NCBI RefSeq assembly: GCF_037042905.1 | Contig: NW_026974149.1 | Coordinates: 1,054,001-1,118,000 of the forward strand | DNA: 64,000 nucleotides | Source of the DNA: Lytechinus pictus | Lineage: Eukaryota | Direction: 5' to 3' | In this document: positions 9,091-49,261 of the stretch, in pieces | Layout of the letters: each line of letters starts with the position of its first letter | Numbering within the stretch: the stretch's first letter is position 1 | The notes under the pieces: model-generated | Databases searched by the model: none | Seen by the model: only the letters and a program-made list of their open reading frames with translations | Told to the model about the DNA's origin: nothing | Position numbers and translations under genes: made by a program

Positions 9091-12000
9091 TTATGTCTGC
9101 TTAGATTACATTCTTTTGTTATACAAAATCTATCTACATAGACCTATGATTTCATTCACTTATACCCTTGCTCAATATACAAGGTTTATCAAATCCCTGG
9201 TGATCCCCCCCCCCCCCCCCTTTTCACTAAAAGCCCGGAGTCTGTTCGTCACATGTACGCGCTCATGACCGGACACACTCTTCCACTATGTACATACACC
9301 CTCACTTGCACCTTCACACACCTTTCACTCCAAGCTTTCAACACCGTATTGCACACCGAAGTTTATACCCTTCATGAACCTGGATGACGTATTGGATAAT
9401 GCAGTATTTACACCCCAGTGTAGATACTATACTGCCAACGAATTTAATTCAGTTTTTAATACTACCCAAATTAACAAACCAATCCACCTTAGCTTTATGC
9501 ATATAAACATTAGAAGCTTGCAAAAGAACTTTGATACTTTCAGTGAGTTTTTTTTCTATATTGAATACTTTTCCCTTTTCTGTAATCGCTATGTCAGAAA
9601 CATGGTTACACTCAACCACCCCATCCATTTTCAACATTGACAATTATACATTTAAACATAGTGATCGTAATCGTCGAACTGGAGGAGGTGTCGCTTTTTA
9701 TATTCACAATGATTTAAATTTTAAAATAAGACATGATATTCAACTCCAAGGTATAGAATCCTTATTCATAGAAATTATTGATGAAAAAAAAAAATAAGAT
9801 AGTCGGCGTAATCTACAGACCACCAAATAATATCGCCAACATATTTATGGATAAATTGGAATCTTGTCTAGAATTTATATCACACGAAAACAAGGAAACT
9901 TATCTCATGGGCGATTTCAATATAGATATATCTATGCCTCATACACCACTGGGCCAACAGTTTATTAACTTGTTTTCATCTTTTTCATTTAAATCTCTCA
10001 TTAACAGACCAACGCGGATAACAAGTACAACACACACAATCATTGATAATATATTTACCAATGTAGGTCTATTAGATAATTATAATAACAAAGGAATAAT
10101 TTACTACGACATTTCAGACCATTTACCCATATTCACAATTTGTAAAGATAATAGACATTTACAAAAACAACAAAATTTAGAAAATATTACCCGACGAAAA
10201 GAGACTAAACGTAACATAGAAACTTTAAAAACTGATTTGAGTGCAGAGAGTTGGGAAGATGTCTACAGAGAAGAAAATGTTAATAAATCATATGATGTAT
10301 TTTTAAATAAACTTATTCATTACTATGAAAAAAATGTACCTCTGATAAAAATTAAACTAAGTAAAAAGAAGAATAAACAACCATGGATCACTCAAGGCAT
10401 AATTAAATCAATACTCACTCGTAATAGATTTTATAAAATATCACTAAAATCACCTACTCAAGAACATAAAAACAAATACAAAAAATATCGTAATAAATTA
10501 ACGTCAATAATCCGTTTGGCACGCAAATCGTACTTTTCGAACAAAATTGAAAACAATAAAGATAATAATCAAACATTATGCACACAGTAAGCGAAATGTT
10601 AGGTAAGAAAAACGAATGATCTTAACAATGTTGATTTCCTTTTAAACGGACATACAACGAAAAACCCTACCGAAATTGCTGAAGCATTTAATTCTTTTTT
10701 CGCCAATGTTGGTCCTAACCTTGCATCTAGCATTGTCACTAATACCAACAAATTTTCTACATATTTAAATAACAATGCCGAACATTCTTTATTTTTTAAT
10801 CCTACTAATCTTCATGAAATTTTAGAAATCGTCCGATCCTTGAAATCTACTAAATCTTGTGGCCATGATGGTATCAGTGTATATTTACTAAAACAAATTA
10901 TTCATTTTGTGGCTTCTCCCCTTGTACATATTTTCAATTTATCTCTCTTAAAGGGAATTTTCCCGGATCAACTTAAACTTGCAAAAATAATCCCCATATA
11001 CAATCCCCTATTTCATTACTACCAAGCATATCCAAAATACTTGAAAAAATTGTTTATAAACGACTATATTCTTTTCTGGACACAAATAAATTATTAATTC
11101 CCAACCAATACGGCTTTAGGAAAAATCACTCAACTGACTATGCAATCTTACAATTATATGATAAAATACCAGATTCACTTTCCAAAAAAGAGCACACTGT
11201 TGGGGTTTTCATGGATCTATCGAAGGCATTCGATACCATGAATCATCATATATTGTTATGTAAATCAAAGACATATGGAATTAGAGGTATTGTACATTCT
11301 TGGTTTACAGACTTTTTAATTAATAGACGTCAATTTGTTAATTTTAAATCCAAGTCATCCCATACATGTCCCGTTAAATGTGGAGTACCTCAGGGTTCAA
11401 TCCTAGGTCCCTTATTATTTTTAATATATATGAATGATATTGTAAATGCATCACCTTTACTTACATATGTTTTATTCGCAGACGACACTAACATATTTTA
11501 TTCACATCAGAACTGAAACATTCTAGTTGCAACTCTTAATCAAGAATTTAAAAAATTATCATTATGGTTTAAATCAAATAGACTCTCCCTTAACATAAAT
11601 AAAACAAACTTCATGTACTTTAAACATATTAATTCTAAACAATTATTTCGCGACATCATTTATATCAATGATATGCCCATTAACAAAAAAAAAGGAAACA
11701 AAATTTTTAGGTGTATTGATCGATTCTAACGTAACATGGAGTAGTCATATTCGTAATATTAGCATGATGATTGCAAGGGCCATAGGCATCTTGTACAAAC
11801 TGAAATATTATCTATCTCAAAGATCATTACTAATGCTTTATAACTCCTTTATTTTGTCACACATTTCTTACTGTAACATAGCATGGGGAAATAGTAACAA
11901 AATAAAAATAGACTCAATATTACGCCTTCAAAAGAAAGCTCTTCGTATTTGTTATCACTCTCATTATCTCGCCCATACTGATCCATTATTTCATTATTTT

Positions 12001-12695
12001 AAGACATTGAAAATTTACGATATTCACACTTATCAAACTGCCATTTTCATGTATAAATTTTCCAACAACACTATTCCAGCATCCTTCCGTAATATTTTTG
12101 TTTACAACAGAGACATACATTCATACCCTACACGACATTCATCTGACTTTCACCTAACAAATCCAAAAATAATAATTGCTCACAAAACAATACGTCATCA
12201 CGGTCCTGAAGTTTGTAACACTTTGCCGAATAACATCAAACAAGCTACATCTCTTTTTTCCTTTAAAGCTTTGTTAAAAAGGTTTATTGTATCAAAGTAT
12301 TTGTAAAAATCTCACCTGCACATGCACCCACATATGCACCACTTCACCTGACCCCTTTACCCTCTCCCCCTTTTTTTCTTAACATTTCAAATAATTATGT
12401 GACATCATTATTATAGACCAATGAATTTTTCTCTACAATGGTTTTCATGTAGCTGCCTTCCTATGGCTGCTATTCTCTCAAGCATTTTGCTTATGATAGC
12501 TAGCCACTGCATTTTATTTTATATATTATTGCTTACATGTATATCTATGTAAATTATTCTTCTATCATGTAATCGTCGCAATTTGTAAATATTTCATTTA
12601 TTTTTGTATTTCTTTATATTCATTATGATTACTGTGTTTCATATATTGAATTTTTAATAAATGCAGAAACACCTGCAAAAAAAAATAAATAAAAA
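9091..12695 (+). mobile_element. CR1/L2-group (Crack-like) LINE: complete but frameshifted ORF2, 3' UTR, A-rich tail
   Basis: APE endonuclease motifs HINIRSL, SETWL, GGGVA, IYRPP, GDFN, IDNIF, SDHLPIF; RT motifs DLSKAFD, GVPQGSILGPLLF, FADDT; tail at 12677-12695. Confidence 0.93.
9374..12306 (+). pseudogene. LINE ORF2 (endonuclease-reverse transcriptase), disrupted
   Basis: Consecutive ORF pieces 9374-9640, 9531-9797, 9778-10590, 10840-11097, 11211-11516 and 11668-12306. Confidence 0.92.
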
Positions 12696-16125: not shown

Positions 16126-16202
16126 ATATATGTATATAGGCCTATGTGTGTGCGTGTGTGTGGGTTTGTTTGTTTTGTGTGATCGAGCGCCTTTGGAACG
16201 TT

Positions 16203-16895
16203 AGTAGTATATATAGGTACCCCTCGGGTCCTCGGAGGAGCAGGACTGCTCCTCGATGACGTCATAATCCGATTATAAAAATTATTCCGATTATAAATAA
16301 TAGAAATATGAATCATGAAATATTCTATATTGTTCTAAACAATAGAATATGAAATATTAATAAATAAATTAATCAATAATTAGGAAATATGAATCGATAA
16401 TTATGAAATATGAAAATATGGATTAATAAATTATGAATTATGTATCCATGAATTATGAAATATGGATTATAAAAAGACGGTATGACATAGTGACGAAACC
16501 TGAAAAAAAACAAATGACGTCATAGGGTTTGCACAACATCCATATCCATACTAAAAAACAAGAAGAAAGTAAAGAAACGATAGACATGTCTCGGACATGT
16601 CCATCGCATAGAGGCGATGCGTGCCTGACCATACGAGCGTGACGATAGGCCTATTGCACAACTTTTGAAAATATTGCATGGACTTTTTTTGTACGTTCGT
16701 ATAGCATTATCTACGAGTACAGTCGATAATAGTATCGGGTATTCCCTCAAGCATGACGTCAATGCACACTCGATCGTTCGTGCGTAACGATATTGCATAA
16801 GTTTGAATATTACATGGTAGGGTAAAGTGTGACATTGAATTTTCTAAACAGATAACATTGTTGATTTTTAGCATTAAATCTTAACTTTTTATACT
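16203..16895 (+). repeat. Left TIR of the Polinton-like element
   Basis: Reverse complement of 29708-30533. Confidence 0.93.
16582..16602. promoter_or_regulatory. Consensus p53-family response element in the TIR (mirror copy at 29999-30019)
   Basis: AGACATGTCT-C-GGACATGTCC is two perfect RRRCWWGYYY half-sites with a 1-bp spacer. Function untested. Confidence 0.6.
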
Positions 16896-17439
16896 CTCAT
16901 TGAAGTAGGGGGACGTGGGTATATTTTCCCCGCTCATTAAGCCAATGCATGCTTGATCATTCGAGCATAACACGGTACTTACATGCCAAATATTCAAATT
17001 CGACGTTGCACCACCACAATGTGCGTTGCGTAATCTGATAATCTTTAGTGAATCCTCTGAATCCTAATTAGTACAATTACGTTCCCATATAATTACGAAT
17101 CATCATTATTGTCACCAATTCCCATATCAGGTCTATACGCTACCCGTAGGTTATATTGTATAGTTGGTTGTTACACAGTGTTAAGTGAGCAGTGATGTGA
17201 GTGGTGGAGGTGTATGATTTCCTGTAGAACAAGCTAAATCATCCAAGCATGCACATCTTCATTTTCAATATATGGTACGGGCTTTGTACTACATCATGTG
17301 CTTGTTTATGTGTGAGGGTGTGTGTGTGTGTGTGTGTTTTTTAAGGAATCAAATACAATAACCTCAAAAGCAGAAGTCTTTCTGTTTCTTGTAATTGTCG
17401 TTTCATGAATTGAAAAAAGAGTTTTTGGTGCAACTTGAA

Positions 17440-19297
17440 TTAGTGAACGGCTGAACTAGTCGATTATCTTTGGTTTCATCATAACATTGTTTTAAAAGAA
17501 AATATATATTTTTCGTCATATTGTAGTATACCTTGCAGTACTTTTCATAATTTCTATTGTTTTAATCCGGGGTTTTAAATATGGCAAAGCGAAATCACGA
17601 TGGCCCGAATATTGATCGTGTATATCGAAGTATCCCCAACAACCATGAAAATATACAGCGTTAAGTTTTAGTATGATCCTAATGAATGCAAATACCCGTA
17701 GAGGATAAGAGTATTCCATCCCTTGGACCCAAAATCACATCGAATATCGAATTTAAGGGCACGCAACAAGATAATGTTCCGATCGATAGTTCGAAAAAAC
17801 GAAGATGCGCAACAGTTAGGCACACCGAATTACCACTTACTTATGGTGTATGTATTTGTTGAATAATTATGTAATGTGGCCGATTTACACATTTATCGCC
17901 ATTTAAGTAGAACTTTCACCGTTTGGTAAAAATGACATACACCTCGAACATTTTATCGATATAATAATGGGACTATGCTTTGATCAGAACTTCAGGTGTC
18001 TTATTTTTCACTCCGACCTCTTCTGCATAAAATTATGCGACAATCTTCTTGCTGTAAACTAGAATAGTATAGTAATAACATCCAGTACCATCATAAACCC
18101 GCGTACAAGTTTGCATAACAGCGGTACACCACCGTGAGTTTTCATGTTTCCAACTCTTTATATTTTTGTAAGAAAGATAATTCTCGTACAAACCTGTCGT
18201 AAGGAAAAAGCTATTGGATGACGTCACACTTCTCGGTTTGACAAGAAGACGATGTATATTGTATAATCGGAGTGCAGACATAATAGTCACGTGCGGGGAT
18301 CAATCGATCGAAAAGAAGTTGGGTGCATTATTCACAGAATGGCCAATATGTCATTCACTGGAGAGAAAAAAAATCCCCACCTTGGAAATGTCTAAATCCC
18401 CGAATAGTAAAACTTTTAAAATGAACATCATGAAGAAATGGTCATATCCATAAATCAACCCATTCCTAAACCTTGGTTAATCCACAAAAGCTTCATATCT
18501 TTGCACAAACCCAAGTAAGCCATTCGGCCATATGCCTTTCGAACGTCATCAAGTGATTTCGTGAGCCAGTTACCCATGAAAAGAAAAATGGGGGAACTCA
18601 TCTCAATACCGTAATGATTAGAGTAGATAGAAGTCCAGATTTGCTTTATTTATATACATGTATATTGATGTTTTATGGCGTCAAAAGCAGATTCAATAAC
18701 TTGTTATCTTCCCTAGTCTAATATTCTGCAATTTTTGTTTTACCGTTATTGCTATTAGTCGTTGGTTTTTCTTTACTTTCAAGCAATGAAATATATATAT
18801 ATATATTGAATGATATGAACTTTATTTTTTACATTTCTATTTTAACCTATATAATTATAACTCTTGCATGGGTTGAAATCATCACATCATCGTAATTGTA
18901 CTTTCTTTTTCGCGAAAATACAATGACAAGAGGGTAACTTTGATGTTAATATGCCAATGATTTGCCTAAGTGTGCTCTTTACTCCATCGGTCTGATCATC
19001 TTTTGATCAATGCCCAGAGACAGAATCGACTAGTTGAATATCTTGAAAGGCGGTCAGTATAAGCAATTCAGTATTGATTTTAGTCGCTCTTGCATAGAGA
19101 TATCAGCAAATACACAAGTACAGAAGAAGTCCTGAATAGCTTCACTGATTCTATTGTATACTCCTCAAAGAGGGGTATGACATCATCTCCCTTGTATTGC
19201 ATCTGACACGTCTGAGGGTACTTTCCAGACTTACAAACTTTCAAGTTCTGTCAAGATGCGGTCCCTTTTAGAGGTGTAGGGTAGCGATATTTTCCAT
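17440..19297 (-). pseudogene. Decayed ORF of unknown function, left copy of an inverted paralogous pair
   Basis: Peptides shared with the right copy: DRILTELESL / DRILSELESL and EYSYPLRVFAF...FHGCWGYFDI / EYSYPLRIFAF...FHSCCGYFDI. Confidence 0.55.
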
Positions 19298-21820
19298 AAT
19301 ATACTATATATCACTTATATTTTCATACCCTATTCCATTTAAAGTTGATGTACAGTATTCAACTCTCACCCGTTCTATGTTTTTCAAAATAACCTTTTTA
19401 AATCTTTAACATTTTATTCTTAATGTTTACATGCACTATGAATTTGCTGCGTCATTTACATGTATATATTCACTTTAATGCTACATTTAGCTATAGGTTT
19501 TATGTGTAATATTAATTTAGAATTGTTAAGTTGTGTAAATGTTTATGTATATCCAAAACTTTTGAACACACAGTACCAAATCTTTGATTTCTTTACATTT
19601 ATTTGAGTTTCATAGATATCCTGTATGTTATTAATAATTCAACGATGATGCCAATATAAAGCAGTTGATTTATTATTTTTTTCATTTTTTCTAAAGTATT
19701 GAATTCTTTTATTATTATCTTTGCTGTTTTTTCAATAAAGACACATGTTTGCAGTGATGTAATAAAAAAGATTCCACATCTCCCTGCATTATACTGTAAT
19801 ATCACTCGTTCATTCCATTATCCTTTTTATACGCCCCTTTGTCCCCCCCCCCCTCTCTCTCTCTCTCTCTTTGTCCTCTTTCAGACTCGCGTGAATCAAT
19901 TTTAATGTTTACATCTGACATCATCCTTTATCTATACATTCTATCATTACCACCTCTTTACAATTTTGCTTCCTTGCACATAACGGCCTCAATTAAACGA
20001 TTTACACAGAATATTTTTTGTACTACACTAAAAAACGTATAATAGTGTGCATCATGCTTCTTAACAAGCTAATCTTCTTACAATTTTATTACATTTCTTT
20101 ACTTAACTCAATATCAATAATAATTATTCTTTTTGAAAAACTCCATCTATCCATTTTAACTAGTCAACAAATTAAAACTCAATCTCCAACTCTCCTTCGA
20201 TCATTCTTATATACTAATATTCTAATATACTCTATCTCCTCTTCTTGCATGTCCATCTCCCAATTTTCACTCCCCTTTCACCATTATCAGCATACTACTC
20301 ACTTGATTTGCTTAATTTTCCATCAGTACTTTACTCATCATCGTTTTCATTCTTTTTTTCTTTCAATTCTCATATCATCAATCTATAAACTGACAAAAAT
20401 GAATAAGCCAGACACGTCATATGGGGTATGTAAATTTATTATATTTTTATCACACCATAATTACATGAACAAAACAATATATACATATTGATAGATGGAA
20501 CACAAATAATATGTAATTTAGATATAGTTATATTGAACTGCAGGTTATGATCTTGCACAATTACACTTTGCTGTATCTTTTTTTAATACAAATAATGTAT
20601 CATAATGATTAAAATAAATGTATGTACACTGAAATGAAAAAAAAATAATAAAAAATTGTCATTCATACCTTCTTAAAGTATATTTCATGACTTTATCATG
20701 TTTGCAATTTTAAACAGTACCAAACAGGATAACAAAATCAAATTACACGTTGGTTGTTTTTACAATATTACGGACAAAGTCAAAGCCTAACTTAATTTCT
20801 TCTTTTTTTTTTTACTTTAGAGACGAGAAGTACAAACGATAATACATTTTCAATTAAAACAATCGCAATTCGAATCATATAAAAGAGGATTGTATAATGA
20901 CTATCACTCTACTACATTTCATACAGTATTTTAAAAGTGTAAAACTAATAGGTAAATATTTACAAAACTTCATACTGTGAAAATAAATATGTGTTGTTTC
21001 TTATGTTGCATATACAAGAATAGCATGTAACTATATCAATGATGAATTCACCGTTATGATTTTTCACTAAACATGTTCTTGGTAACATCCCCAAATATTC
21101 AATACATCTTTTAAACAAACTTTACTGAATGCAATTAACTATCAGATGATGTTTCGTTTACATCCATAAATCTGTGAAATACCAACGTATACATGGTACA
21201 TGTACATTTTAAGGTACATATGATTATCTGAATCAAAATACAAGTCAACTCGGATTGTAATACAAAAATATAACATTATGCTATATTCAACAACAACAAA
21301 GTGCATCGTCAGGTTTGATACAATAATGAAATATTCTTAAGACCATTCTCTTATTTCAAATGGATGAAAGCAAATTGTTGCAAAGGGGTTTATTATATTT
21401 TGTGAAAGTAAATTGTATTCTAATAATTGTGAACTCAATATACATTATTGAAAACAGATTGTGAAAGCAAAGTGTGCAACATTTCGTAAAAGTTACTTTT
21501 ACTTCAGCAATTGTGAATTCATATTGTTGAAAAGAATTGTTAAAAAACAATTGCTCCAATTAAAGAGTATGTAAATGTACCACAAAAATCAATAAAATTT
21601 TGATTTGAACACCATTACCTTTTATACATAATTCCTAATCCACAGGATTACTCTCAACTAACATGGTATACAAATAGTTTACCGAAGGAAAAATTTTTTG
21701 CAGGTTATTTTCCAAAATGTATGAATTTGACACAGATATATCACAGCTAACTTTTAAATTCAATGCATTGAAGAGAGAATGTTCTGATAGAAAGTTTGGA
21801 TGGAATAAAAGTTGCAAATG

Positions 21821-24800
21821 TCAGATATCTAAGTAGGTAGTGGATACATTATCATCCAATACTTTTCTTTTTGGATAGAAATAGGTGAATGCATTCTTTA
21901 TTTGAGAGTAGGTGGAGATTCCATTTTGGACAACGCGAAAACCTTTGTTTACACCACTCCCAGCAACTAGTGAACGAAGAACGTTCAAGTACACATCTTT
22001 TGTTATGTTATTTTGCTTGTTATTAACACCCTTGCAGCTGAATTTGTCAGTAGCACCAAAGCAGTAATAAGTTTTACTGCAGAGGGCTATGATTCCATCG
22101 CCTTCCCACTCTACTTTGAACAACCCATGAGTTCTCTTATCATATCGAGCATTCTCCAGGGTATCATTTCGAGGGAACCAGTTGGCTTTGTCTTTTTCGT
22201 ATCTTTCCCTCATACATGGTTTGATTATGTCATCGAAAGAATCGGATGAAATGGCGATGTAAGCGGAATCTGTGTCCATTTCACACATTTGAAAATCGGA
22301 TGGCTCAACATATTTTAGCAGAAAGTCATAATAGAACTGTAGCATGCGCAGTTTGGCCAACTGGTATACAGCATGACTAATCTGAACTGGCAGGTCCATA
22401 TTGATCTTTCGTTTAGCCATATAAACTTCATAGCAATTGTCAGAGATTGGGTTTAGATCCCTGAAAAGGGTATTGTTGACATGTTTCTGGGCTTTAGCCT
22501 CATCACAGACATTAACATTTCGATGTTTTTCCTTATTAGTAATCGTCTTGCCGTAAGACGAATTGCCTATCAGCTTTATGGTGTCAGCGATAATGCTCTT
22601 CGAGGGATCAACATCATCTTTGCGTCGAGCTTTTGAAACGCTTTAACCAAAGTGCTTGAAGCAGGCAACTGGTTTGTACTCAATGAATTGGTGGATCTTG
22701 CTGACCACCAATCCATGGTTTAGGTACCATCTTAGAAGTGGTGTGTAGAGCAGAATGTTCTTACCAAACATACTACCGATCAGACTACGCCTTGGAGTTT
22801 TCATGATACCCATGTTCCTTGGCATAGAATCCCATCACATCTCCGATATCTTCTCTAGATATATCCACATTTTTGAAAATAGGACACATTTCAGAGAAGT
22901 ATTACCTGAGATGATCAGGGACCTTAATATCACACTGTACAAGCCCAAACAGGGCACCATGATGAATAGCAGAGAGAATGTTGTCTTGGGTTAATCCTTG
23001 ACGGTATTTAGGAGGGGAAAGTCTTTGTAAGAAATGCACTGAGCTTGGGATCAGTTTTACGCATTTTTTTATATTGGCATTCCCAGATGGAGATGTATTC
23101 GTAGCACAACCCTTCTACATTTTCTTGTTTCTCTTGAGTCTTTTTGAGTAAGTCTGCCATAGACTTCCCAAGCTTCGTATTTTTGGTCTGGTCTTTATTC
23201 AGATGGCATGAATGTCCATGGAAGTAACATCCATGGAATTCAAACACCTGTTTAGTTTGAGCACAAAAAACATCGACAGGGAGCTGAAGGGGACCAACTC
23301 TCTTTTTTTAATGATTACCTGCATGTCGGATAGGGATCTGTCGAGAGAAAATTTGATATTGAAGCCATTCTTGAGCGATTGGATGCTTATTTTCAGGCTT
23401 GAAATCATTCTCTGCCCTTCGTCTGACAAAGTGCCCTGTTGGCATCTTTTGCATTATTGCATGCAGGTACAAGGCATTTTTATCGAAACCTATGATCTTT
23501 TCACATGGCTTGCCCCCACGAATCGTTGTTACACCACGTTCATGATACCTATGAAATATAATGGATGGACCTCCTACCAGATTATCGCGGAAAGTATAAT
23601 AAAGATCCTTGTCTTTCTCATAGATTACGCTGAAATGCGCATCTGGACTACACTTCATGAGGTATTTTATGGTGAGTCCAGGTACAGAAATACCATCTTT
23701 GAACATATCGATTTTAAGATTCTTGTAAAAATCGCGCATTTTCTCTACCGCCTCAATGAACGGCGTAACATCGAGGTTATTGTACCATATTAGATAATCT
23801 CTTAGACTTCTCATGTTATTCTCTTTCCAGATTCGCTGACAGTATTCATATTGGTCTTGTGATAAAGCAGTATGATTGAGATTGTTGCTGAAAGTTTCAA
23901 TAAGGGGAAGTTCAGGTATTTTGAGTTTTTCCAGACAATCTACCCACCCGTGAGGAAAGAAACCTTTCATTCGTTCACAGTCATATGCTTTAAGAAAGGC
24001 TGCGTATGAAAAGCCAGGTGCAAGAAAATTAGAAATATCAAGAAACTGAAGGTGCTTTGATTTCAGAGCCATATGATTATGGTTCCGCTTGATGACGTAA
24101 TCAACAGAATCAAACTGTAGAAGTTAAGGATAGAGGTATTGTTTGATGGCATTGATATCATACCTCCCGGAATTGGACCCAACCACAGGGAGTTCTATGA
24201 TATGGTTCATGAAACGCTTCTTCAATCTCTGAAGATGTGTAGCTTTGTGAGGCGTTTCATTGTTTGCCTTCTGCCAACTCTCGTATTCTTGTATTGTTTC
24301 ATCTAATTTTTCTATCACATCCTGGTAAGAAGATTCTAGGAGAGAGCAAGAGTGCTTACTTATTTCCAGGAGGTACAATATCGAGTCATCAATTAATTTT
24401 TTGCAGTCTCCATCAGACACTTGGCAGTATGGTTCTGTGTACCCAGGAATATTTGAGTTGATACTCATGCTCATAGGGATGTGTCTTGAGGTAAACATTA
24501 GTTTTTCAGTTGGAGCATCGTTGGGATCTATATTATTGTCAATCTTCTCGAGATAGGATTCTATGTCAAATGTGGCAAAGTATGGAAAGTAGCGCCGTTC
24601 TTCTTCGACAGAGATGCCTTCCTCAGCCAGCTCTTCCCATATGGTCAAAGGGTTATGGAATGTAGCCCTGCCCGTGGGGAAAATATGCTTGGTGGCTGTA
24701 GAAGTACATATTTTCTCGTGTCGATGAAGTGATTTACGGGTTTTCATAGTTTGTCACATGTACGACATTGATAGTTTTGACAATATCTGTCAATATCTGA

Positions 24801-25733
24801 GATGAAACTAAAATGGTTTTCATATAGATTGACATACATTGTTTCCGGAAACTTGTCCAGTCCTCGTCTCACGAGCTTAGCAGCAACTGTACTTTCACTA
24901 TTTACCAATTCACCTTCATTTTCAAGAGGAATATTATCACCGTTGGTACATTCGACTGGCTGTAATTCGTACACCATGATATTAATCTTGAAGAATTCTT
25001 CGACTTTTTCCAATTTGCTTAGATCTCTTCCTTCAAAATCTGAATTTTTTTTTGTGAGGCACATACTGTTTAAATAATCTTTTAGCTGTAGTTTCAAGAC
25101 CATGAGAATTAGCACCTTGTAATAAAGCTAAACATCTAAAAATGCATAAGTTATCATCATACATCTGACAATCCCTATGACTCTTAACCAGAGATACGAT
25201 AGCTTGATTATTTTGTATATAATTTGGGAGGTCAATTCCGTGGCCAATGGGATGATCAGCAATTCGAAATACATAAAAAGTGACATTTGTGACATGCTGA
25301 ACGACCAATTTAGAATTTGGGCGAAGGGTTTGAGCATATTCAAGGATATCTTCCTTGAGTAATGTATCCAAAAACCTTTGGAATGACGAATGGTCAGAAA
25401 TAAGAACAGGTTCATTCAGAATCTTTGTGTTTGTACTAGCGTAATAATACCTACATTCATTGGTTTCATTGTTGCAAAGAGTAAATCCATACGATGCATT
25501 AACTTTGAAAGCTGTAGATTGATCCTCAAACACCTTCTGAGCCTTCTGTCTAAGGATATCATTGTTTAGATCTGGAAGATGGTAGTTGTAAAATCGATGA
25601 ACCCTTCCAAATGACCGTCTGTCTCTGATATTCAGCCAATGTTCCCTGTATACTTGGGCGGCACAACTCTTAGGATCGATGTCAGAAGGAAGGTTTACCG
25701 TGGTTGGTGCTAGGTTAGGTTGTTGACGGCGTC
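21821..25733 (-). pseudogene. polB: Protein-primed family B DNA polymerase (pPolB), multiply frameshifted
   Basis: DNLCIFRCLA; ExoI FDIES, ExoII NSGRYD, KGFFP, ExoIII YNNLDV; motif A FDKNALY..MPTG; motif B KLIGNSSYGKT (about 22544-22576); motif C MDTDSAY; KTY; KGV. Confidence 0.95.
23008..23300 (-). other. Vsr-like (PD-(D/E)xK) endonuclease domain inserted in pPolB between motifs A and B
   Basis: FEFHGCYFHGHSC ... YEYISIWECQY pattern. Confidence 0.75.
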
Positions 25734-26368
25734 CTGAGTAAAGAGATAATATTGAGATGTAAGAGATAATAAACACCATAATTTGAGTAGAGTCAGAGCA
25801 AGTATTTTTGCTTGGAAAACTTTTTGGTTTAAAATATTTGCCCATCCATTCATTTCAAATAACTTGAAACTTTTACTAATCATGCGATAGATGTTTTCCA
25901 TTCAGTTTCAAAGTTACCTGGGTTGTCATAATTTATGAATATCTAAAGTATTGGTAAAGAGTCAGTAATCATCAAACATTACGAAATTTTAAAGTGCAGT
26001 CGTAATTAAATGCATGTTGTACCCATTCGAATATTGGTTTCTTTGTTATATCTCTTTGCAATCTAGTAGAGAAGAAAAAAAAGGTGTTTCATGTAAGATT
26101 GAACCTATAGAGGGGGTCAAAATATAGACATACATAAATTATGCATGAAGATCAATCAAGAGAAAGAGAGAAAAACAGTGAAAGCTTTTTTTTTTACAAT
26201 TTTATAATATTGTGGGATCTCAAGGAGAACGAAATGAAAAAAATTACGTTAATGCAATGATTATAAGAGAAATTATATTTCAAGCCAGTTCTTGAAAGTT
26301 TAGAAAAAAAAGTACCAAGCAAAATTGACCTATTGAAGAAAAAATAATAATAAGATAGAATAACTTAC

Positions 26369-26810
26369 TTTTTGCTTGGTTTGACTCTGGTCCATCGGCA
26401 ACTCGCTTCTTTGGTAACTTTGGAGGAACGGGATTATGGTGCGACATTTCATGTTTCATAAATTTCGCACGATTATGAAATATCTGCCCACAAGTATGAC
26501 AAAGATAGGTTTCCTTGCGATGCGATTTCATGTGTTCATCAAGGTCCTTTTGCTCCAAGAACAGTGATTTGCATTGTGAGCAAGTTGGTCGCTGGTTCTC
26601 CTAATCAGGTTCAGCACCATTGCTAAAATCCTGATGAGTTTTCATATGACGTTTCAAATTATCCGGTCGACTAAAAGCTTGTCCACATGTATCACAAACA
26701 TGTAAAGTCCTTTGCCCATGATGGAACATGCGATCATGACGCATCAAATTTCTTTTAACAGTAAATTCTGCGCTGCAAATATCACAGCTGAAGGGAGGGT
26801 TGTTCTCAAT
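26369..26810 (-). pseudogene. Four-C2H2 zinc-finger exon with one in-frame stop; probable 5' exon of the pPolB gene
   Basis: FSCDICSAEFTVKRNLMRHDRMFH, VCDTCGQAFSRPDNLKRHMKTH, TCSQCKSLFLEQKDLDEHMKSH, YLCHTCGQIFHNRAKFMKHEMSH; ends at an A|GTAAGT donor. Confidence 0.85.
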
Positions 26811-27429
26811 GATGATTGTAAATCCAAAATGTACTTGTACAGAAGATACCCAAAGAGAACTCTATAAATATTGGCTTAGGTATTAAGTTGCTGGAACTCG
26901 TAGGCTGAGGTATAAAGTTCCTGTTCTGGAAGATTTCAGATATGTACACCTCCAGTGCTCCTCAAAGGTAGAATGGACAAATTATGTCATGCAGGTTGTT
27001 TAAATCTCCCTCTCCACTATTTGAGGTGGGGGATTTCCTGAAAGTTATGTAATACTGTCATGGTTGAATGATTTTACTGGCATGTTCTGACAGGAAATTA
27101 CACACATCCACCACACACTGACACGTGTGCTTGTGCAGTTCTTACTCTGTTTCACACAACAAAGTACAACCAGCTATATAATATACTGGTAGTGGTTATC
27201 CTATATGATCCACTACAATGATGATGGTTAATATTGCTTGTTGACCAATGTTCAAATGTGTAGACTCATGGTATAAAGGTATTATCAAGATTATTGAGTT
27301 AAAAGATACGACAGAAATATTATTAAAGAAAATAAAACAGATGAGACTGAAAATACTTATACCGAGGCTTTAGTAAATTGTGACATAATAAACACCTACA
27401 AAGAACAATACAACAACAACAACAAAATG

Positions 27430-27870
27430 AAATATTTTACCCTGTACACTAACAAGGATCGCATCTTGTCAGAACTTGAAAGTTTGGAAATAAAAAGTCC
27501 CGCAAGTGCAATAAGGGGGAAATGGTGTCATAACTTTCTTTGAGGAGGAAGACAATATAATTGGTGAAGCTGTTTACGTCTTCTTCTTAACTTGTTTATT
27601 TGCTGATTTCTATACAATAGCGAACAAAATCAATATTGAATTTCTTACAGACCGACCACCTTTGAAGAAATCAAACTAGTCGATTCGGTCTATGGGTTTT
27701 GATCAAACGATGATCCGATCGATGGAAGAAAGAGCACACTGGTCGTTGGCTTTCTCTACAATTTCGCGAAAAGAAAAGTACTATTACGATGATGTGGTGA
27801 TTTCAACCCATGCAAGATTTTATGACTATACGCGTTAAAATAGAAATGTAAAAATAAAGTTCATATCCTT

Positions 27871-27904
<34 letters not shown>

Positions 27905-29605
27905 CATTGCTTGAAAGTAAAGAAAGAATAAACAACGACTAAAAGCAATAACGGCAAAACAAAAACTGCGAAATAATGGAGTAGAAAAGATAGTTACTTA
28001 AGTTGTTACTAAATCTGCTTTTGACGTCAAAAACATCAACATACTTTTAGCATAAAGCAAATCTGGACATCTATTTACTTTAATCATTTAGGTATTGAGA
28101 GGAATTGCCCCATTTTTGTTCCATGGGTAACTTGCTCACGAATACACTAGATTTTTATGACATTCGAAAAGCCTACTGCTTTTTTTTTTTTAAGGATGGA
28201 ATAGTTGCCATTCTGTGAACACGACGATGGACATAATGTACACAACTTCTTATCGATTTTCCCGCACGCGACTATTGTACCTGCAGAAAGTGTGACGTCA
28301 TCCAATAACTTACCAACGACAGGTTTTGGCTAGAGTTTTTTTTCTTTGAAAAATAGATAGAGTTGGAAAGTTGAAAACTTACGGTGGGTACCCCCTTTTT
28401 GCAAACTTGTACGGGTCTACGATATAGAATGTTTCTAGTATTCCTTATTATTCTCGTATAGTATTTATATAATATTCCTTATAAGATTGTTGCATCTATA
28501 TTTAGATGTAGAAGAGGAGTGAAAAGAGCTTGATGTTCTGATCAAAATATAGTCCTATTATTATATCGATACAATGGTCGAGAGGTGTGTATCATTTTTA
28601 CAAAACGGTGAAAGCTTTACTCTGCAGTAAATGTGTAAATAAGCCACATTACATTTCTTTTGCAACACCATAATCAAGTTGAAATTCGGGGTGTGTTACT
28701 GTTACGCATCTTCTTCTTTTTTTCTTCTTCTACTTCTTCTTCTTCTTTCTTTTTAGGAACTATTGGAACATTATCTAGTTGCGTTACCTTTGATTTCGAT
28801 GAGTGGATGATAGGAACAATTGAACCATTTGAATAACAGCGTGAAATTTTTATAAATAGAATGCGATTGGATAGAAACAGGTAAAATAATGTTTTTTTTT
28901 CTTTGGCTGCATGAACAAAATGAACAAATTGAACAAAATGTATTTGTTTTTGTTTATATATTTTGACTACATTATATTTTTCTTTAACTATTTATAGATG
29001 CTAAATGCATCCCTTGTTCATTTTACACGAATTACTTTTACACAAGGCGATATGTTTTAGTTACCTTATTTATTTCTTCAGTGTAGATTTACTACGAATC
29101 GTTTGAATAAATTAAAATGAAAGAGATGGATGATAGAAACAAAATGAACAATTTGAATAATAGCGTGAATTTCTTGTAAATAGAATGCAATTGGGATAGA
29201 AAAAGGCTTTTGGTGTAAATAATGTATTTTGTGTTACAAATAATGAAAAAAAAAGTGAATTGAACAATATGAATAAAATGAACAAACTAAACAAATTGGA
29301 CTTTGTTGCGTGTCCTTTGATTTCGATTTCATTTCGGTCCAAGGGCTGGAATACTCTTATCCTTTACGGATATTTGCATTCATGGGGACCATAAACATAT
29401 CTTGTTTTCATAGTTGTTGCGGATACTTCGATATTACTCGATAAATATCATATGATCGAAGAAGCGATGTTCCCCTTGCCAAAATTAAAACAAAGAAGTG
29501 AAACGTTATACTGTAATATAATAACATAGCAATGGGTTTCGTAATATTTTTTTTTTATTGTTGTAATGATGAGTGAGAAAAGATGATCGATTAGTTCAGC
29601 CGCGT
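27430..29605 (+). pseudogene. Decayed ORF of unknown function, right copy of the inverted pair
   Basis: Collinear reverse-complement similarity to 17440-19297 including a shared (TA)n tract; extra ~0.5 kb at 28800-29305. Confidence 0.55.
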
Positions 29606-29707
29606 ATATACTTCGATATCGATTATATCAAAACACTTTGCAATTTCTACATTCATGACATTTAAGGGAGTTGGATTTCGACATATAAATGAAACATTTG
29701 TTTTTTA

Positions 29708-30533
29708 AGTATAAAAAGTTAAGATTTAATGCTCAAAATGAACAATGTTATCTGTTTGGAAAATTAATTGTCACACTTTATCCTACCATGTAATATTCAA
29801 ACTTATGCGATATCGTTACGCACGAATGATCGAGTGTGCATTGACGTCATGCTTGAGGGAATACCCGATATTATTATCGACTGTGCTCGTGAATAATGAT
29901 GTACGAACGTACAAACATTCCATGCAATATTTTCAAAAGTTGTGCAATAGGCCTATCGTCACGCTCGAATGATCATGAACGCATCGCCTCTATGCGACGG
30001 ACATGTCCAAGACATGTCTATCGTTTCTTTACTTTCTTCTTGTTTTTTTAGTACGGATATGGATGTTGTGCAAACCCTATGACGTCATTTGTTTTTCAGG
30101 TTTCGTCACTCTATGTCATACCGTCTTTTTATAATCCGTATTTCATAATTTATGGATACATAATTCATAATTTATTAATCCATATTTTCATATTTCATAA
30201 TTATCGATCCATATTTCGTATTTCACAATTATCGATCCATATTTCATATTTCCTAATTATTGATTAATTTATGTATTAATATTTCATATTCTATTGTTTA
30301 GAACAATATAGAATATTTCATGATTATCGATCCATATTTCATATTTCATAATTATTGATTCATTTATTAATATTTCATATTCTATTGTTTAGAACAATAT
30401 AGAATATTTCATGATTCATATTTCTATTGTTTATAATCGGAATAATTTTTATAATCGGATTATGACGTCATCGAGGAGCAGTCCTGCTCCTCCTGCTCCT
30501 CCGAGGACCCGAGGGGTACCTATATATACTACT
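29708..30533 (-). repeat. Right TIR of the Polinton-like element
   Basis: Reverse complement of 16203-16895, with extra internal duplications (9 bp and about 90 bp). Confidence 0.93.
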
Positions 30534-30971
30534 AACGTTGATTCATGATTTTGCCCCCCCCCCCCATCTGAAAATGGATCGACGCCCCTGTCTAAATGCA
30601 TAACAAACCTCGATATAATCTTCCTTTGTACGTTTCATAATCATTATTCGGTCAATTTAGAGTATAGATCTACTTTGATTTAAAAGGACAATATTTGGTT
30701 TATTTTCTTAAATCAAACGAAATGACACTTGTAAGAGATGGTTACTGAAAATCAGCAAATGCCTTTCCAAGTCAAAGTTATTGGTCATTTGAGTCTAAAT
30801 TGAAAAAGGACCCACACCCTGAATTTTGAAAATCAATTTGAATGTAGTTGTTAGCTTTCTGTACTTGAAAATATAAGTTTTCAATTGTAATTATATCTAG
30901 TCTGTTTTTAAAGGAGAAATTCAAAGCACCTCCAAAAATGCAATTAATTTCAAGCAGAAATCATGTAGAAC

Positions 30972-45515: not shown

Positions 45516-46562
45516 AGAAGTACATGTATGCCATATCCTACATGTAAAGCTGATGTTTATTCTTGTACCAAGGCAGCCCTCATCTAATCTTACATGGAGA
45601 AAATATGTGTTACATGACATGCTAAGAATTCAACAAAGATTTTCCTATTTGCGATTTCTGTTAAAATTACCTTCGAACAAATTGCTTATGTATTTCTTAA
45701 ATGTGAATATGAAATTTTATTTTGGAATGAAGTTCACGAATGGTTAAATGCCATGCATATAAAACTACAAAATTTAGTGACATTGAAATTTGTTTTGGAG
45801 TTATAACCTTCAATAACTTTTTTTTTCACCAATGTAATTGTTGTTTCCAAAATGTTTCTTTTATTCATGTAAATACAAGAATATCAAACCCACTTTTGCT
45901 CACTTTACACTTCGTTTGGAAAAAATAGAAACTGAAAAAATTATTGCTTTTAAAAGTGAGTGATAAATGTTGAAAAGTAGAATATTTTGTGTAGAAAATG
46001 GGGCAGATTCTGTTCCCCATCTACAGTTTGCATGATAAATCCGCCGCACGAAATTTTTCAACTGCATCGCCCGCTGACTTTATATTTCAAATATGGCGCA
46101 ACTTTTGAGACCAAATTTGCGATGCCCGGGTACGCGGTTATAAAATTACGCAATATTATGTACATGTAGGCCCCAAAACTGCTAAAAACGTGAAATCATC
46201 TACAAATTCAATGCCAAGTTTGTATTTAGTCAAAATTCTAAATTTATCATTATAACTACTTTTACTGATTGAACTTAATTTTGTCTTGCTTATGATCTTG
46301 GGCCCGTACCACAAAACTTAGCAATGATCGTAGAAACACTTTTCTACGATTGATTCCACTGACTACAATACACAGTCAATCTCTATGACATGACTTCTGC
46401 TTTCCTTGACAGAGCCGCAGCAGGTGTGCTCAGTCCAGGGCATGTACATGTATGATCTTTTAAAGTGATGTGGACATTGCTCTGGCTCCATTTCTGCTTT
46501 TATTAATTTTTCATGGTGAACTTATCTTCAACACCTAAAGCCAAACATTTGCGAGACACTAA

Positions 46563-49261
46563 TTTTGTGTATGTGTATTCTAACTCTAATACACACTTGA
46601 ACTCATACTCGGTCTCGATCTCTACTCAATAACTAGGCATGTCTGCTTGGCTTGGAGTTACATTCACAACTGACTTTATTCTCTATACTAAACTACAGTA
46701 TATAATTCACTGTACATAGTTACATAATATTCGGAGGAAGGCAAAGTGATAAGGAAAGTATAAACAGATGGAGTTGAACAAGGGGTTGTTCATGGTGGGG
46801 GTAATACAGCATGGTCAATATTTACACAACTGGTCTGGGGAGGAAACATGATGATAGTGAGCTTATGAACGGAGATGGAAACAGTAGTTGAGATAATGAG
46901 GCATGCATTAATAGCATGATAAAATGACAGAATGAAAGTATGGTTTGATGAAGAATGAAATGTGTTGTATGAACACAATATCCCTCCCTTGTTTGGAATA
47001 AAACTTGTACCATCAAAAGATCCTCACAAAATCCAATCACTGGATCTCATTAACAAAGTCATAAACTCATAATCAACATTATCACAAATTAATCTTTCTG
47101 GAACATATATTCTATAAATTAATTTCTGCTAGACCTTGTGGCATTGTAATACTTGAGGGCAATAACAACAATCGTAAGATTTTCAACATGCATATAGCTT
47201 CTCCAGTTTACTTGAACAAATCACATGTGAACCAAGCTTTGCTATTAATGGAATAAGTCAAAGGAAATTAATGTTCTCAGTTCTTCCTCTTTTCCTCTGC
47301 TTTACTACATATACTCTATTTACAAAGTTTCACAGTTCGGTTCCGTAGGTCATACTCAATCCAGTTCCGTAATCAAGTTATCAGTCCATATTTCTCAACT
47401 TATTTTAGTGCCGAATATTCCTCCTCTGAACATTCCTCCTCTTATTCTTTCTTCGTTGGACAACGGTCCATAGCTCGTGATCATCCTCCTTATCAACGTG
47501 CTGCTCCTGTGTCTGAGCACCTCCTGCTAAGCGTATCAGTCCCAGCTCTGTTGATGTCTTCCTACTGAGTGCGCATCCGCTGTTGTCTCGCACTACCACA
47601 AATCGAGTCGTGGTCGATGATGAAGCTGTCGACACTCTCCCAAAGAATTGTCCCAGGAGTGGAAGTGGGCTGCGACTTCCATACGCGTATAATCTCATGC
47701 GACTGGGGGTCAACCGGAGTGGTGAGCACCGGCCTCTCATCCAGCTAAAAGTACGCTCATCAATGATGTCTACTGACGATCCCGAATCAACAAGGGTATT
47801 GATCCTTGCATTGTTCACCATAATTGATCTTTTAGGAAGGGCATTCCCCTCCTCTCTCACGCTGAACATTAAATTGTCCTCATTTGAGTTGAAGCTGGTC
47901 TCACTCAAATTGTCACTCGTCTTCGCTGCCAAGTTTGCACCTTCCCCAATCCCAGCAAAATCGTTATTCTTGACATGGTTGATAGGAGCTTGTCTCGAGC
48001 TCAAACTACCAGACCTCAGTTTCGTACGGCAAACTCGTGCAAAATGACCTACTCGTTTGCAAACAAGACACTCACGATTTTGGGCGGGGCATCCTCGATC
48101 TCCTGGTCGATGTCCCAATATTCCACAGTTTCCGCATATATTGTCGTGATTGTTCACACTCTCTGATGATTGCGGTTGTCTCACTTGCCTGTCACTGCGA
48201 TGAGGCTGTCTCACATTTCCTCCTTTAACTACATACGCAGATTCCGAAGTTCCTCCCGAAGCTTCCATCACTCCAGCCTGTCGGTCTGCAGATTCAGTCG
48301 CTCTTGCTATCGATAGCAAGTCATCCAGTTTCAGGTCATCTGTCCTGAGTAGCTTCCTTCGAAGTGAGCTAGATGTACATTTATCCACAATTTGGTCACG
48401 TATATGTTCATCGGTATGTTCACCAAATGCACATGATGCTGCCAATACACGCAGTCCAGTGCAATACTCATCGACTGTCTCATCATCACTTTGGACTGCT
48501 TGTCGAAATGCATGTCTCTCGAATACCACATTCTTCCTGGGCTCAAAATATTTGGTCAGAGCCTTCAGCGTTGTCTCATACTTAGGCTCATCCTCATCTA
48601 CCAGTGTCTCATATAACTCTTGAACTTCTGGTCCTGCACAGTGCAGTAGAAGGGCCCGCTTCTGACCATCTGCTGAGACTCCTGATGCTGCTAGGTAGTA
48701 CTCAAATACTCGCCTCCATTTTGGCCAGGCAATCCCTGCCCTAGCCGAACGAACATCAAAGGGTGCTGGCTGTGAAAGGTCCACGCGTCGAGCCATACTT
48801 TCTCTGCCTTTTCAGGTTTTTATTTTTTTATCCTCGTCGCCAATTTGGTGTATGTGTATTCTAACTCTAATACACACTTGAACTCATACTCGTTCTCGAT
48901 CTCTACTCAATAACTAGGCATGTCTGCTTGGCTTGGAGTTACATTCACAACTGACTTTATTCTCTATACTAAACTACAGTATATAATTCACTGTACATAG
49001 TTACATAATATTCGGAGGAAGGCAAAGTGATAAGGAAAGTATAAACAGATGGAGTTGAACAAGGGGTTGTTCATGGTGGGGGTAATACAGCATGGTCAAT
49101 ATTTACACAACTGGTCTGGGGAGGAAACATGATGATAGTGAGCTTATGAACGGAGATGGAAACAGTAGTTGAGATAATGAGGCATGCATTAATAGCATGA
49201 TAAAATGACAGAATGAAAGTATGGTTTGATGAAGAATGAAATGTGTTGTATGAACACAATA
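46563..49261 (-). mobile_element. Gypsy (Mag-like) LTR retroelement, 2.7 kb, gag-protease only
   Basis: 418-bp LTRs at 46563-46980 and 48844-49261 with about 2 visible differences; PBS TGGCGACGAGGAT (48830-48842) complementary to the tRNA-Ser(GCU) 3' end; PPT AAGGGAGGGA (46981-46990); TSD ACTAA(T). Confidence 0.93.
47405..48796 (-). CDS. gag: Gag with two CCHC-type knuckles plus aspartic protease, intact 463 aa
   Basis: KRALLLHCAG, ERHAFRQAVQ..ETVDEY, IRDQIV; CGNCGILGH..C and CLVCKRVGHFARVC; LVDSGS. Confidence 0.93.
   Translation of the reverse strand: MARRVDLSQPAPFDVRSARAGIAWPKWRRVFEYYLAASGVSADGQKRALLLHCAGPEVQELYETLVDEDEPKYETTLKALTKYFEPRKNVVFERHAFRQAVQSDDETVDEYCTGLRVLAASCAFGEHTDEHIRDQIVDKCTSSSLRRKLLRTDDLKLDDLLSIARATESADRQAGVMEASGGTSESAYVVKGGNVRQPHRSDRQVRQPQSSESVNNHDNICGNCGILGHRPGDRGCPAQNRECLVCKRVGHFARVCRTKLRSGSLSSRQAPINHVKNNDFAGIGEGANLAAKTSDNLSETSFNSNEDNLMFSVREEGNALPKRSIMVNNARINTLVDSGSSVDIIDERTFSWMRGRCSPLRLTPSRMRLYAYGSRSPLPLLGQFFGRVSTASSSTTTRFVVVRDNSGCALSRKTSTELGLIRLAGGAQTQEQHVDKEDDHELWTVVQRRKNKRRNVQRRNIRH

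Follow-up and report, generated by a model that had tools for sequence, protein, structure and literature searches.

The window analysed here is a 64,000-nucleotide stretch of the Lytechinus pictus genome (NCBI RefSeq assembly GCF_037042905.1, contig NW_026974149.1, positions 1,054,001 to 1,118,000). It contains a Polinton-type element whose inverted arms enclose a two-exon gene: the first exon encodes four C2H2 zinc fingers (ZnF), and the second a DNA polymerase of the protein-primed family B type (pPolB) headed by a terminal-protein (TP) domain (Table 1). An earlier note, made from the letters of the sequence alone, had proposed this arrangement, and its exon and intron boundaries, the phase 1 junction and the count of four fingers all proved exact.

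Table 1. Features of the Polinton-type element and its gene, in window coordinates.
Feature	Coordinates	Strand	Remarks
Polinton-type element	16203..30533		14.3 kb; AGTAGT ends, AACGTT flanks
Left 6-bp target-site duplication	16197..16202		AACGTT
Right 6-bp target-site duplication	30534..30539		AACGTT
Left inverted arm	16203..19271	+	about 3.1 kb
Right inverted arm	27449..30533	-
Three GAGGAn words, left end	16228..16254		forward one starts at nt 33; TGACG half-site next
Four GAGGAn words, right end	30473..30508		forward at nt 33 and 42
Exon 1	26369..26810	-	442 nt, phase 1; codes for four C2H2 fingers plus the first half of a basic, nuclear localisation signal (NLS)-like stretch
Fingers 1-2	26634..26786	-	helices VKRNLMR, RPDNLKR; predicted base readers
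Fingers 3-4	26439..26582	-	helices EQKDLDE, NRAKFMK; not typical base readers
Intron	25734..26368	-	635 nt, GT-AG, phase 1; contig joints and conserved splice sites
Exon 2	21821..25733	-	TP, vOTU, internal C2HC finger, exonuclease, polymerase; broken in window copy
TP domain (approximate)	25255..25608	-	fold match of sibling model
vOTU protease domain (approximate)	24785..25233	-	fold match to 4BOZ
Vsr-like nuclease insert in polymerase	23038..23259	-	phmmer to 1VSR, E 2.7e-4 (weak)
Likely 3' untranslated region	20629..21820	-	covered by contigs of run X1

The splice junction and its sibling copies

A DNA search of the genome gave four matches, namely the window itself, the copies C15 (87% identical) and C19 (76%), and one 87-bp piece; a protein search added one truncated neighbour and one remnant. 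Both siblings keep the GTAAGT donor, the CTCAG acceptor and the phase, so that the splice sites are conserved in two copies with open frames. Exon 1 is a stop-free 445-nt phase 1 exon in both, with a start codon at the aligned position; in the window copy this start is absent, as the earlier note had suspected (ATG now ATT). The sibling introns measure 675 and 649 nt, and the exon-2 frames are open over 1299 and 1302 codons. Since their first Met, at codon 121 or 189, falls inside or after the TP domain, an upstream exon is needed. Between C15 and C19 the ratio of nonsynonymous to synonymous substitution rates comes to 0.25 over exon 1 (fingers 1-2, 0.10; fingers 3-4, 0.20) and to 0.13 over exon 2, and the introns are 68% identical; on this codon comparison, exon 1 is under purifying selection.

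The window copy is a pseudogene, transcribed and unable to make the protein. It carries at least four stops, at 26603 (exon 1), 24126, 23310 and 22645, along with at least four frameshifts, close to 25053, 24745, 23017 and 22810. Just left of the window (L014:9187 to L015:8152) lies a truncated copy, 97.5% identical, which is a segmental duplicate rather than a new insertion, because the left flank is shared.

Transcript evidence was drawn from eight of the 22 listed runs. No listed carrier run is on record as RNA: for contig runs X1, X2, X5 and X10 that type is a guess only, and X16 is of no stated type. All five of these contig runs skip exactly 635 nt between 26369 and 25733, the junction at which the earlier note had proposed to look; X1, X2 and X16 belong to organism A (studies P1 and P6), X5 and X10 to organism B (P2 and P5). 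A second joint with C19-type letters appears in X1, X2 and X10. Contig depth drops to nearly nothing across the intron, as it does beyond the limits of roughly 20400-27000. The raw-read RNA runs X20-X22, with 13-26 reads each, hold no listed joint and are too thin to show one. The exact same join, with residues NQAK-R-RRQQP across it, is made in the automatic RefSeq model P0001 (1448 aa, labelled Lytechinus pictus), and a Diadema gene model, P0215, joins the corresponding junction independently. The splice is real. Some contigs differ from the window at 0 positions, which shows transcription and splicing of the broken window copy or of an allele identical to it. That the finger frame might terminate on its own was considered and rejected: the read-through frame does stop in the intron, yet the join is present in all five contig runs. 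One protein model, P0258, is of the read-through type.

A product of roughly 1450 aa had been predicted, and P0001 together with the RNA-type joints agrees with it, but the window copy cannot make such a product. The promoter that had been placed about 55 bp upstream of the ATG found no support. Contigs extend upstream through the CCAAT/TATA-like stretch, and the CCAAT motif is conserved in neither C15 nor C19; hence the stretch probably lies inside the 5' untranslated region.

Domain layout and spread of the fusion

A structure model of the first 399 exon-2 residues of a sibling (score in the predicted local distance difference test, pLDDT, 73) was compared with known folds. Residues 41-158 match Y-family little-finger folds (Z 5.3-6.5; best root-mean-square deviation (rmsd) 3.0, 89 aligned), and for residues 166-314 the top 13 matches are OTU domains (4BOZ: Z 7.9, rmsd 3.4, 108 aligned). 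The Z values are middling but fit the TP-vOTU layout of the Polinton polyprotein (PMC11161782). The TP topology is alpha/beta; the Ser of RPNSKW, before the last TP strand, occurs in 48 of 48 aligned rows and is a candidate priming residue, and the vOTU catalytic Cys and His are likewise present in all 48. Both the PRD1-like TP and the vOTU with catalytic Cys/His that characterise Polinton pPolB polyproteins are found here. The order ZnF-TP-exonuclease-polymerase given by the earlier note is right in its domains, but a vOTU protease sits between TP and exonuclease; for this reason the fingers likely end on a cleaved ZnF-TP piece and not on the whole enzyme. By analogy with section 8 of PMC11161782, the polyprotein would cleave itself and prime covalently. 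P0001 gives no PF03175 hit at E 0.01; with all four co-resident canonical polymerases its alignment is confined to the Vsr stretch, and in the tree these four sit on a long branch of their own.

The search for C2H2 fingers ahead of such a polymerase, as the earlier note had advised, found this architecture in many homologues and metagenome loci. N-terminal finger patterns occur in 92 of 152 long homologues (a very redundant set), and the sea cucumber models P0005, P0175 and P0176 carry N-terminal fingers. From 440 metagenome loci 80 were kept, many of them from one sample series; 55 show a TP, and among these the fingers are in the same frame in 30, in another frame in six and absent in 19 (several of these cut short). 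Integrase and major capsid genes accompany 16 of the 30 same-frame loci. Because most relatives carry fingers and TP in one frame, the fusion is a lineage trait in which the intron is optional. Thus the fusion proposed as intron-joined does have a real intron here, but the intron did not create it. One relative (L081:4550-5400) has a phase 1 GT-AG intron, possibly homologous in position, in a basic stretch between fingers and TP, and a likely upstream intron as well. An exon-1 search of 1.84 billion proteins was dominated by generic finger proteins, and of its matches P0215, P0258 and P0307 alone were informative. In IMG/VR, one scan had no matches and another gave one distant locus. A Drosophila adintovirus protein bears the database label 'C2H2-type domain', possibly for an internal finger. 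Polinton polymerase genes also occur in records of bacterial metagenome-assembled genomes (L175, L184, L181), likely as host contamination; the L175 record also holds integrase and capsid genes.

Finger helices compared with element ends

Only fingers 1-2 appear to resemble base readers, judged by the contact residues at -1, 2, 3 and 6. Predictions were made with the standard C2H2 recognition code. In the selections of PMC1920264 (Table 1), RSDNLTR was obtained on GAG and RSDSLTR on GTG, and Table 3 of PMC5260015 likewise supports the reading of Asn at helix +3. For the window, fingers 2 and 1 together predict the word GAGGAn, which occurs 3 and 4 times per 100 bp at the two ends versus 0.12 inside (0.18 per 150 bp). 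Asn stands at helix +3 of finger 2 in the window and C15, where GAGGA is at nt 33; C19 has Ser at this position and GTGGA at nt 33, 42 and 57, with no GAGGA in the first 100 bp. The Asn/GAG state looks derived, because the Diadema relatives have Ser.

The comparison was extended to 12 metagenome loci (end motif outside genes, at least two fingers), to which the window and C19 were added. C15 was counted together with the window, and for elements with multiple end candidates the choice was made by eye. Two further loci, L175 and L184, were fetched after the code had been fixed, which makes their outcomes genuine predictions. The predicted word fits the ends in six of the 16 elements: the window, C19, L080, L081, L175 and, under a relaxed rule only, L084. 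In L080 three fingers predict GAGGAGG[TC]n, with 8 sites in 150 bp versus a background of 0.04; L081 has GCGnAG at 36 and 57, and L175 has G[TC]GGCG at 35 and 45 (background 0.04). The predicted words are 6-9 bp long, the repeats begin 33-36 bp inside the ends of fitting elements, and in most of the ends that match, TGACG half-sites come next. Permutation of scores between fingers and ends over 14 elements gave p = 0.004 with the plain rule and 0.0001 with the relaxed one; a rank test over 15 elements, which took in L175 but not L184, whose end is unclear, gave 0.03 and 0.006. The first cognate site lies at nt 33-36 in five of 15 elements versus 1.7 expected (p 0.0065, with the nt range chosen after looking). 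Five of the six fitting elements belong to a 19-row group around the window polymerase (SH-aLRT 85), in which L127 fails, and L175 is a distant branch from this group.

Several points weigh against recognition of the ends by the fingers. Ten of the 16 elements have no clear match (L089, L094, L102, L107, L109, L125, L126, L127, L132 and L184), L184 failing at either candidate end, and the relaxed rule that admits L084 was chosen after seeing it. The score test depends on L080: without the window, C19 and L080 it gives p = 0.37 plain and 0.04-0.06 relaxed. The metagenome ends were picked by the AGTAGT motif, a paired repeat being present in L094 only, and the L175 word also occurs three times in the GC-rich end of L127. 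The link of Asn and Ser with GAG and GTG is one evolutionary change, the repeated words are not independent, and the finger code is loose; in Table 1 of PMC1920264, RSDNLKK is also listed for a TGG site, and RSDSLKN for ACG. The GTGGAG block is also found on arm remnants beside canonical-type polymerase fragments (L171) and may serve another protein. The suggestion of the earlier note that the product could recognise its own terminal inverted repeats (TIRs) gains real, if indirect, support from the predicted sites at the ends and from the Asn/Ser covariation, and it concerns fingers 1-2 only.

Mobility, replication and relation to known systems

Starting from the observed splice, domain order, conservation, terminal repeats and covariation of these repeats with finger 2 among the siblings, we propose that in this spliced, transcribed and broken Polinton gene fingers 1-2 probably bind a repeated G-rich word lying some 33-60 bp in from the ends of the element itself, which would probably set TP and polymerase on the replication origin. 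Beyond the sequence match, we infer the following steps. The NLS-like stretch across the junction would carry the protein to the nucleus, where fingers 1-2 would dock on the subterminal words, doing in cis the job of host Oct-1/NFI at the adenovirus origin; the TP serine would then prime DNA synthesis, and the vOTU would cut ZnF-TP free, leaving it on the 5' ends.

How such an element moves is a related matter. Among 133 probe frames from relatives, including complete Polintons, the polymerase gene was the only match in the window and C19 elements; integrase (RVE), packaging ATPase, protease and major and minor capsid were not found in either. Family searches undercount, since the Pox_A32 search found one ATPase only although others exist. 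Both elements have, like autonomous Polintons/Mavericks, a protein-primed PolB and TIRs with AG..CT ends and a 6-bp target-site duplication, but no integrase, ATPase, protease or capsid was detected in them, and their gene is not intronless as the core genes reported for vertebrate elements are. The C19 element (14,625 bp) has an ATGGCG duplication on both sides and arms 100% identical across 3446 bp, and consequently its mobility is recent. In the window, the arms are 91-93% identical over the outer ~700 bp and 74-81% in the inner blocks; the inner arms (17609-19271 versus 27449-29448) differ by 19-26% and the outer 700 bp by 7-9%, so that the arms likely diverged before insertion. Elsewhere in the genome lie canonical Polintons of the PF03175 type, which carry integrase, ATPase and capsid-like genes and have the first 7-9 terminal bases in common with the element. 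Because the element has no integrase yet a clean 6-bp duplication, it likely borrowed the integrase of these canonical Polintons and would have inserted in trans. A point against this is that no helper with the same 15-19-bp ends was found: up to 20 kb inward of unpaired ends there was no integrase or capsid, an absence that counts for little in one assembly and with a minority of the C15-array ends covered.

The full 19-bp end is common to foldback mini-elements in the same genome, which the polymerase could also copy. Two fully palindromic elements of 5-6 kb (L018:1982-8021 on C17 and L019:2011-7079 on C20) have the same 19-bp ends, GTGGAG words, 6-bp duplications and a one-finger acidic open reading frame in each arm; 150 of 303 candidates of this family were scored, and all matched. 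An alternating-orientation, concatemer-like array of the foldback frame lies at G000:C17:8136542-8180127 (L074, L075), and about 20 tandem end motifs of the window-element family, in pairs ~271 bp apart, lie beside the C15 copy (G000:C15:2051528-2099092; L003-L005, L167, L168). Arm remnants with the GTGGAG block and foldback frame but different outermost bases occur in L171, L060 and L061; since the L171 remnant runs into canonical-type polymerase fragments, ends and polymerases may have been swapped. We advance only tentatively, as a wider and rather doubtful reading, that a Polinton lineage may encode its own origin-recognition factor as fingers on the TP, co-evolving letter by letter with its ends, and that the functions may be split here, a one-gene polymerase element copying itself and foldback satellites while other Polintons supply integrase and capsid.

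Other explanations were weighed against origin recognition. The fingers might confer general affinity for DNA or chromatin and nuclear retention, as the sequence-independent N-terminal domain of phi29 TP does in the account of PMC4357725, with the matches arising by chance among G-rich repeats; the ten elements that do not fit and helices that vary widely even among close ENA relatives agree with this. The 8-base match in L080, the switch between siblings, the later fit of L175 and the fixed position speak against it, and we regard it as unlikely. It is similarly improbable that the fingers bind the terminal words for another job, such as protecting the ends, handing over to a borrowed integrase or packaging motor, or regulating the promoter in the arm. 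The covariation of fingers and ends would fit equally, the TGACG half-sites that follow the words are in keeping with it, and ZnF-TP on the 5' ends could be an adapter, an idea raised in general terms in bioRxiv 2026.10.13.758929; however, the fingers are fused to the priming domain, the first site is at a near-fixed distance from the end, and transcription appears to start kilobases away. It is very improbable that the polymerase-only elements are remnants, kept by the host or in decay, and that their finger exon was captured from the host and has no role in the element: an intron, transcription of even a broken copy and the lack of detected integrase or capsid would suit it, but the same one-frame architecture stands in the 16 loci with integrase and capsid, and the C19 arms testify to recent movement.

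Two other elements were seen in the window: a short long-terminal-repeat element at 46561-49261 (420-bp repeats 99.5% identical, a 468-codon gag-like frame, no pol seen) and, at 9772-12306, a broken long interspersed nuclear element with endonuclease-like and RVT_1 frames.

A finger code that can be read and that agrees with the ends opens the choice of origin by Polinton polymerases to test, and natural Asn and Ser variants of the finger exist within one genome. If true, origin recognition by fingers 1-2 would account for the specificity of replication where elements are co-resident, and for the pairing of satellites with helpers. Spliced, polymerase-only elements escape surveys that ask for a linked integrase or for frames free of introns.

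What appears new is that the finger helices predict a word repeated near the element's own ends; the fusion itself is not unique to the window locus. The literature listings showed no paper describing a Polinton pPolB with C2H2 fingers fused to it, although an earlier mention may stand in figures, in Repbase, in the 2006 PNAS paper or in bioRxiv supplements. The word 'zinc' occurs 0 times in the main text of PMC11161782 and in PMC10748475, PMC8097293, PMC4405056 and bioRxiv 2026.10.13.758929; in the available text it occurs twice in PMC8502044 (a passage on other genes, 0 in the supplement text), and 'zinc finger' once in PMC11071296, for separate genes.

As described in the main text of Krupovic et al. 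2024 (PMC11161782), the Polinton/Maverick polyprotein TP-vOTU-Exo-Pol resembles the window gene in domain order, in the little-finger-related TP fold, in the OTU Cys/His and in the candidate priming Ser; unlike it, the window gene has an N-terminal C2H2 array, an intron and an element with no other detected gene. The marine pPolB2 with a VSR insert (Jeong et al. 2023, PMC10748475) shares with it the Vsr insert and divergence from co-resident PF03175-type polymerases; canonical co-resident polymerases also align at the Vsr stretch. The text of that survey lists echinoderms as a host phylum, required a linked integrase and does not mention fingers; neither host names nor the motif were found in its supplement. 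In the examples of section 13 of bioRxiv 2026.10.13.758929, pPolB genes are consistently paired with integrases. Vertebrate Mavericks, as presented by Barreat and Katzourakis 2021 (PMC8097293), share inverted ends, the 6-bp duplication and the size range, but their 7-8 genes are intronless and their TIRs measure 46-1447 bp, whereas here there is one spliced gene between arms of 3.1-3.4 kb.

The adenovirus origin offers a parallel in layout. There, host NFI and Oct-1 recruit the preterminal protein and polymerase (pTP-Pol). Priming by protein takes place at an inverted end, as proposed here. PMC2397415 puts a pTP-Pol motif at bp 8-17 and the site for Oct-1 at bp 40-48, near the zone at 33-60 in the window element. 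Adenovirus, however, borrows its readers from the host, whereas in the window element the terminal protein itself carries the predicted reader as a fusion.

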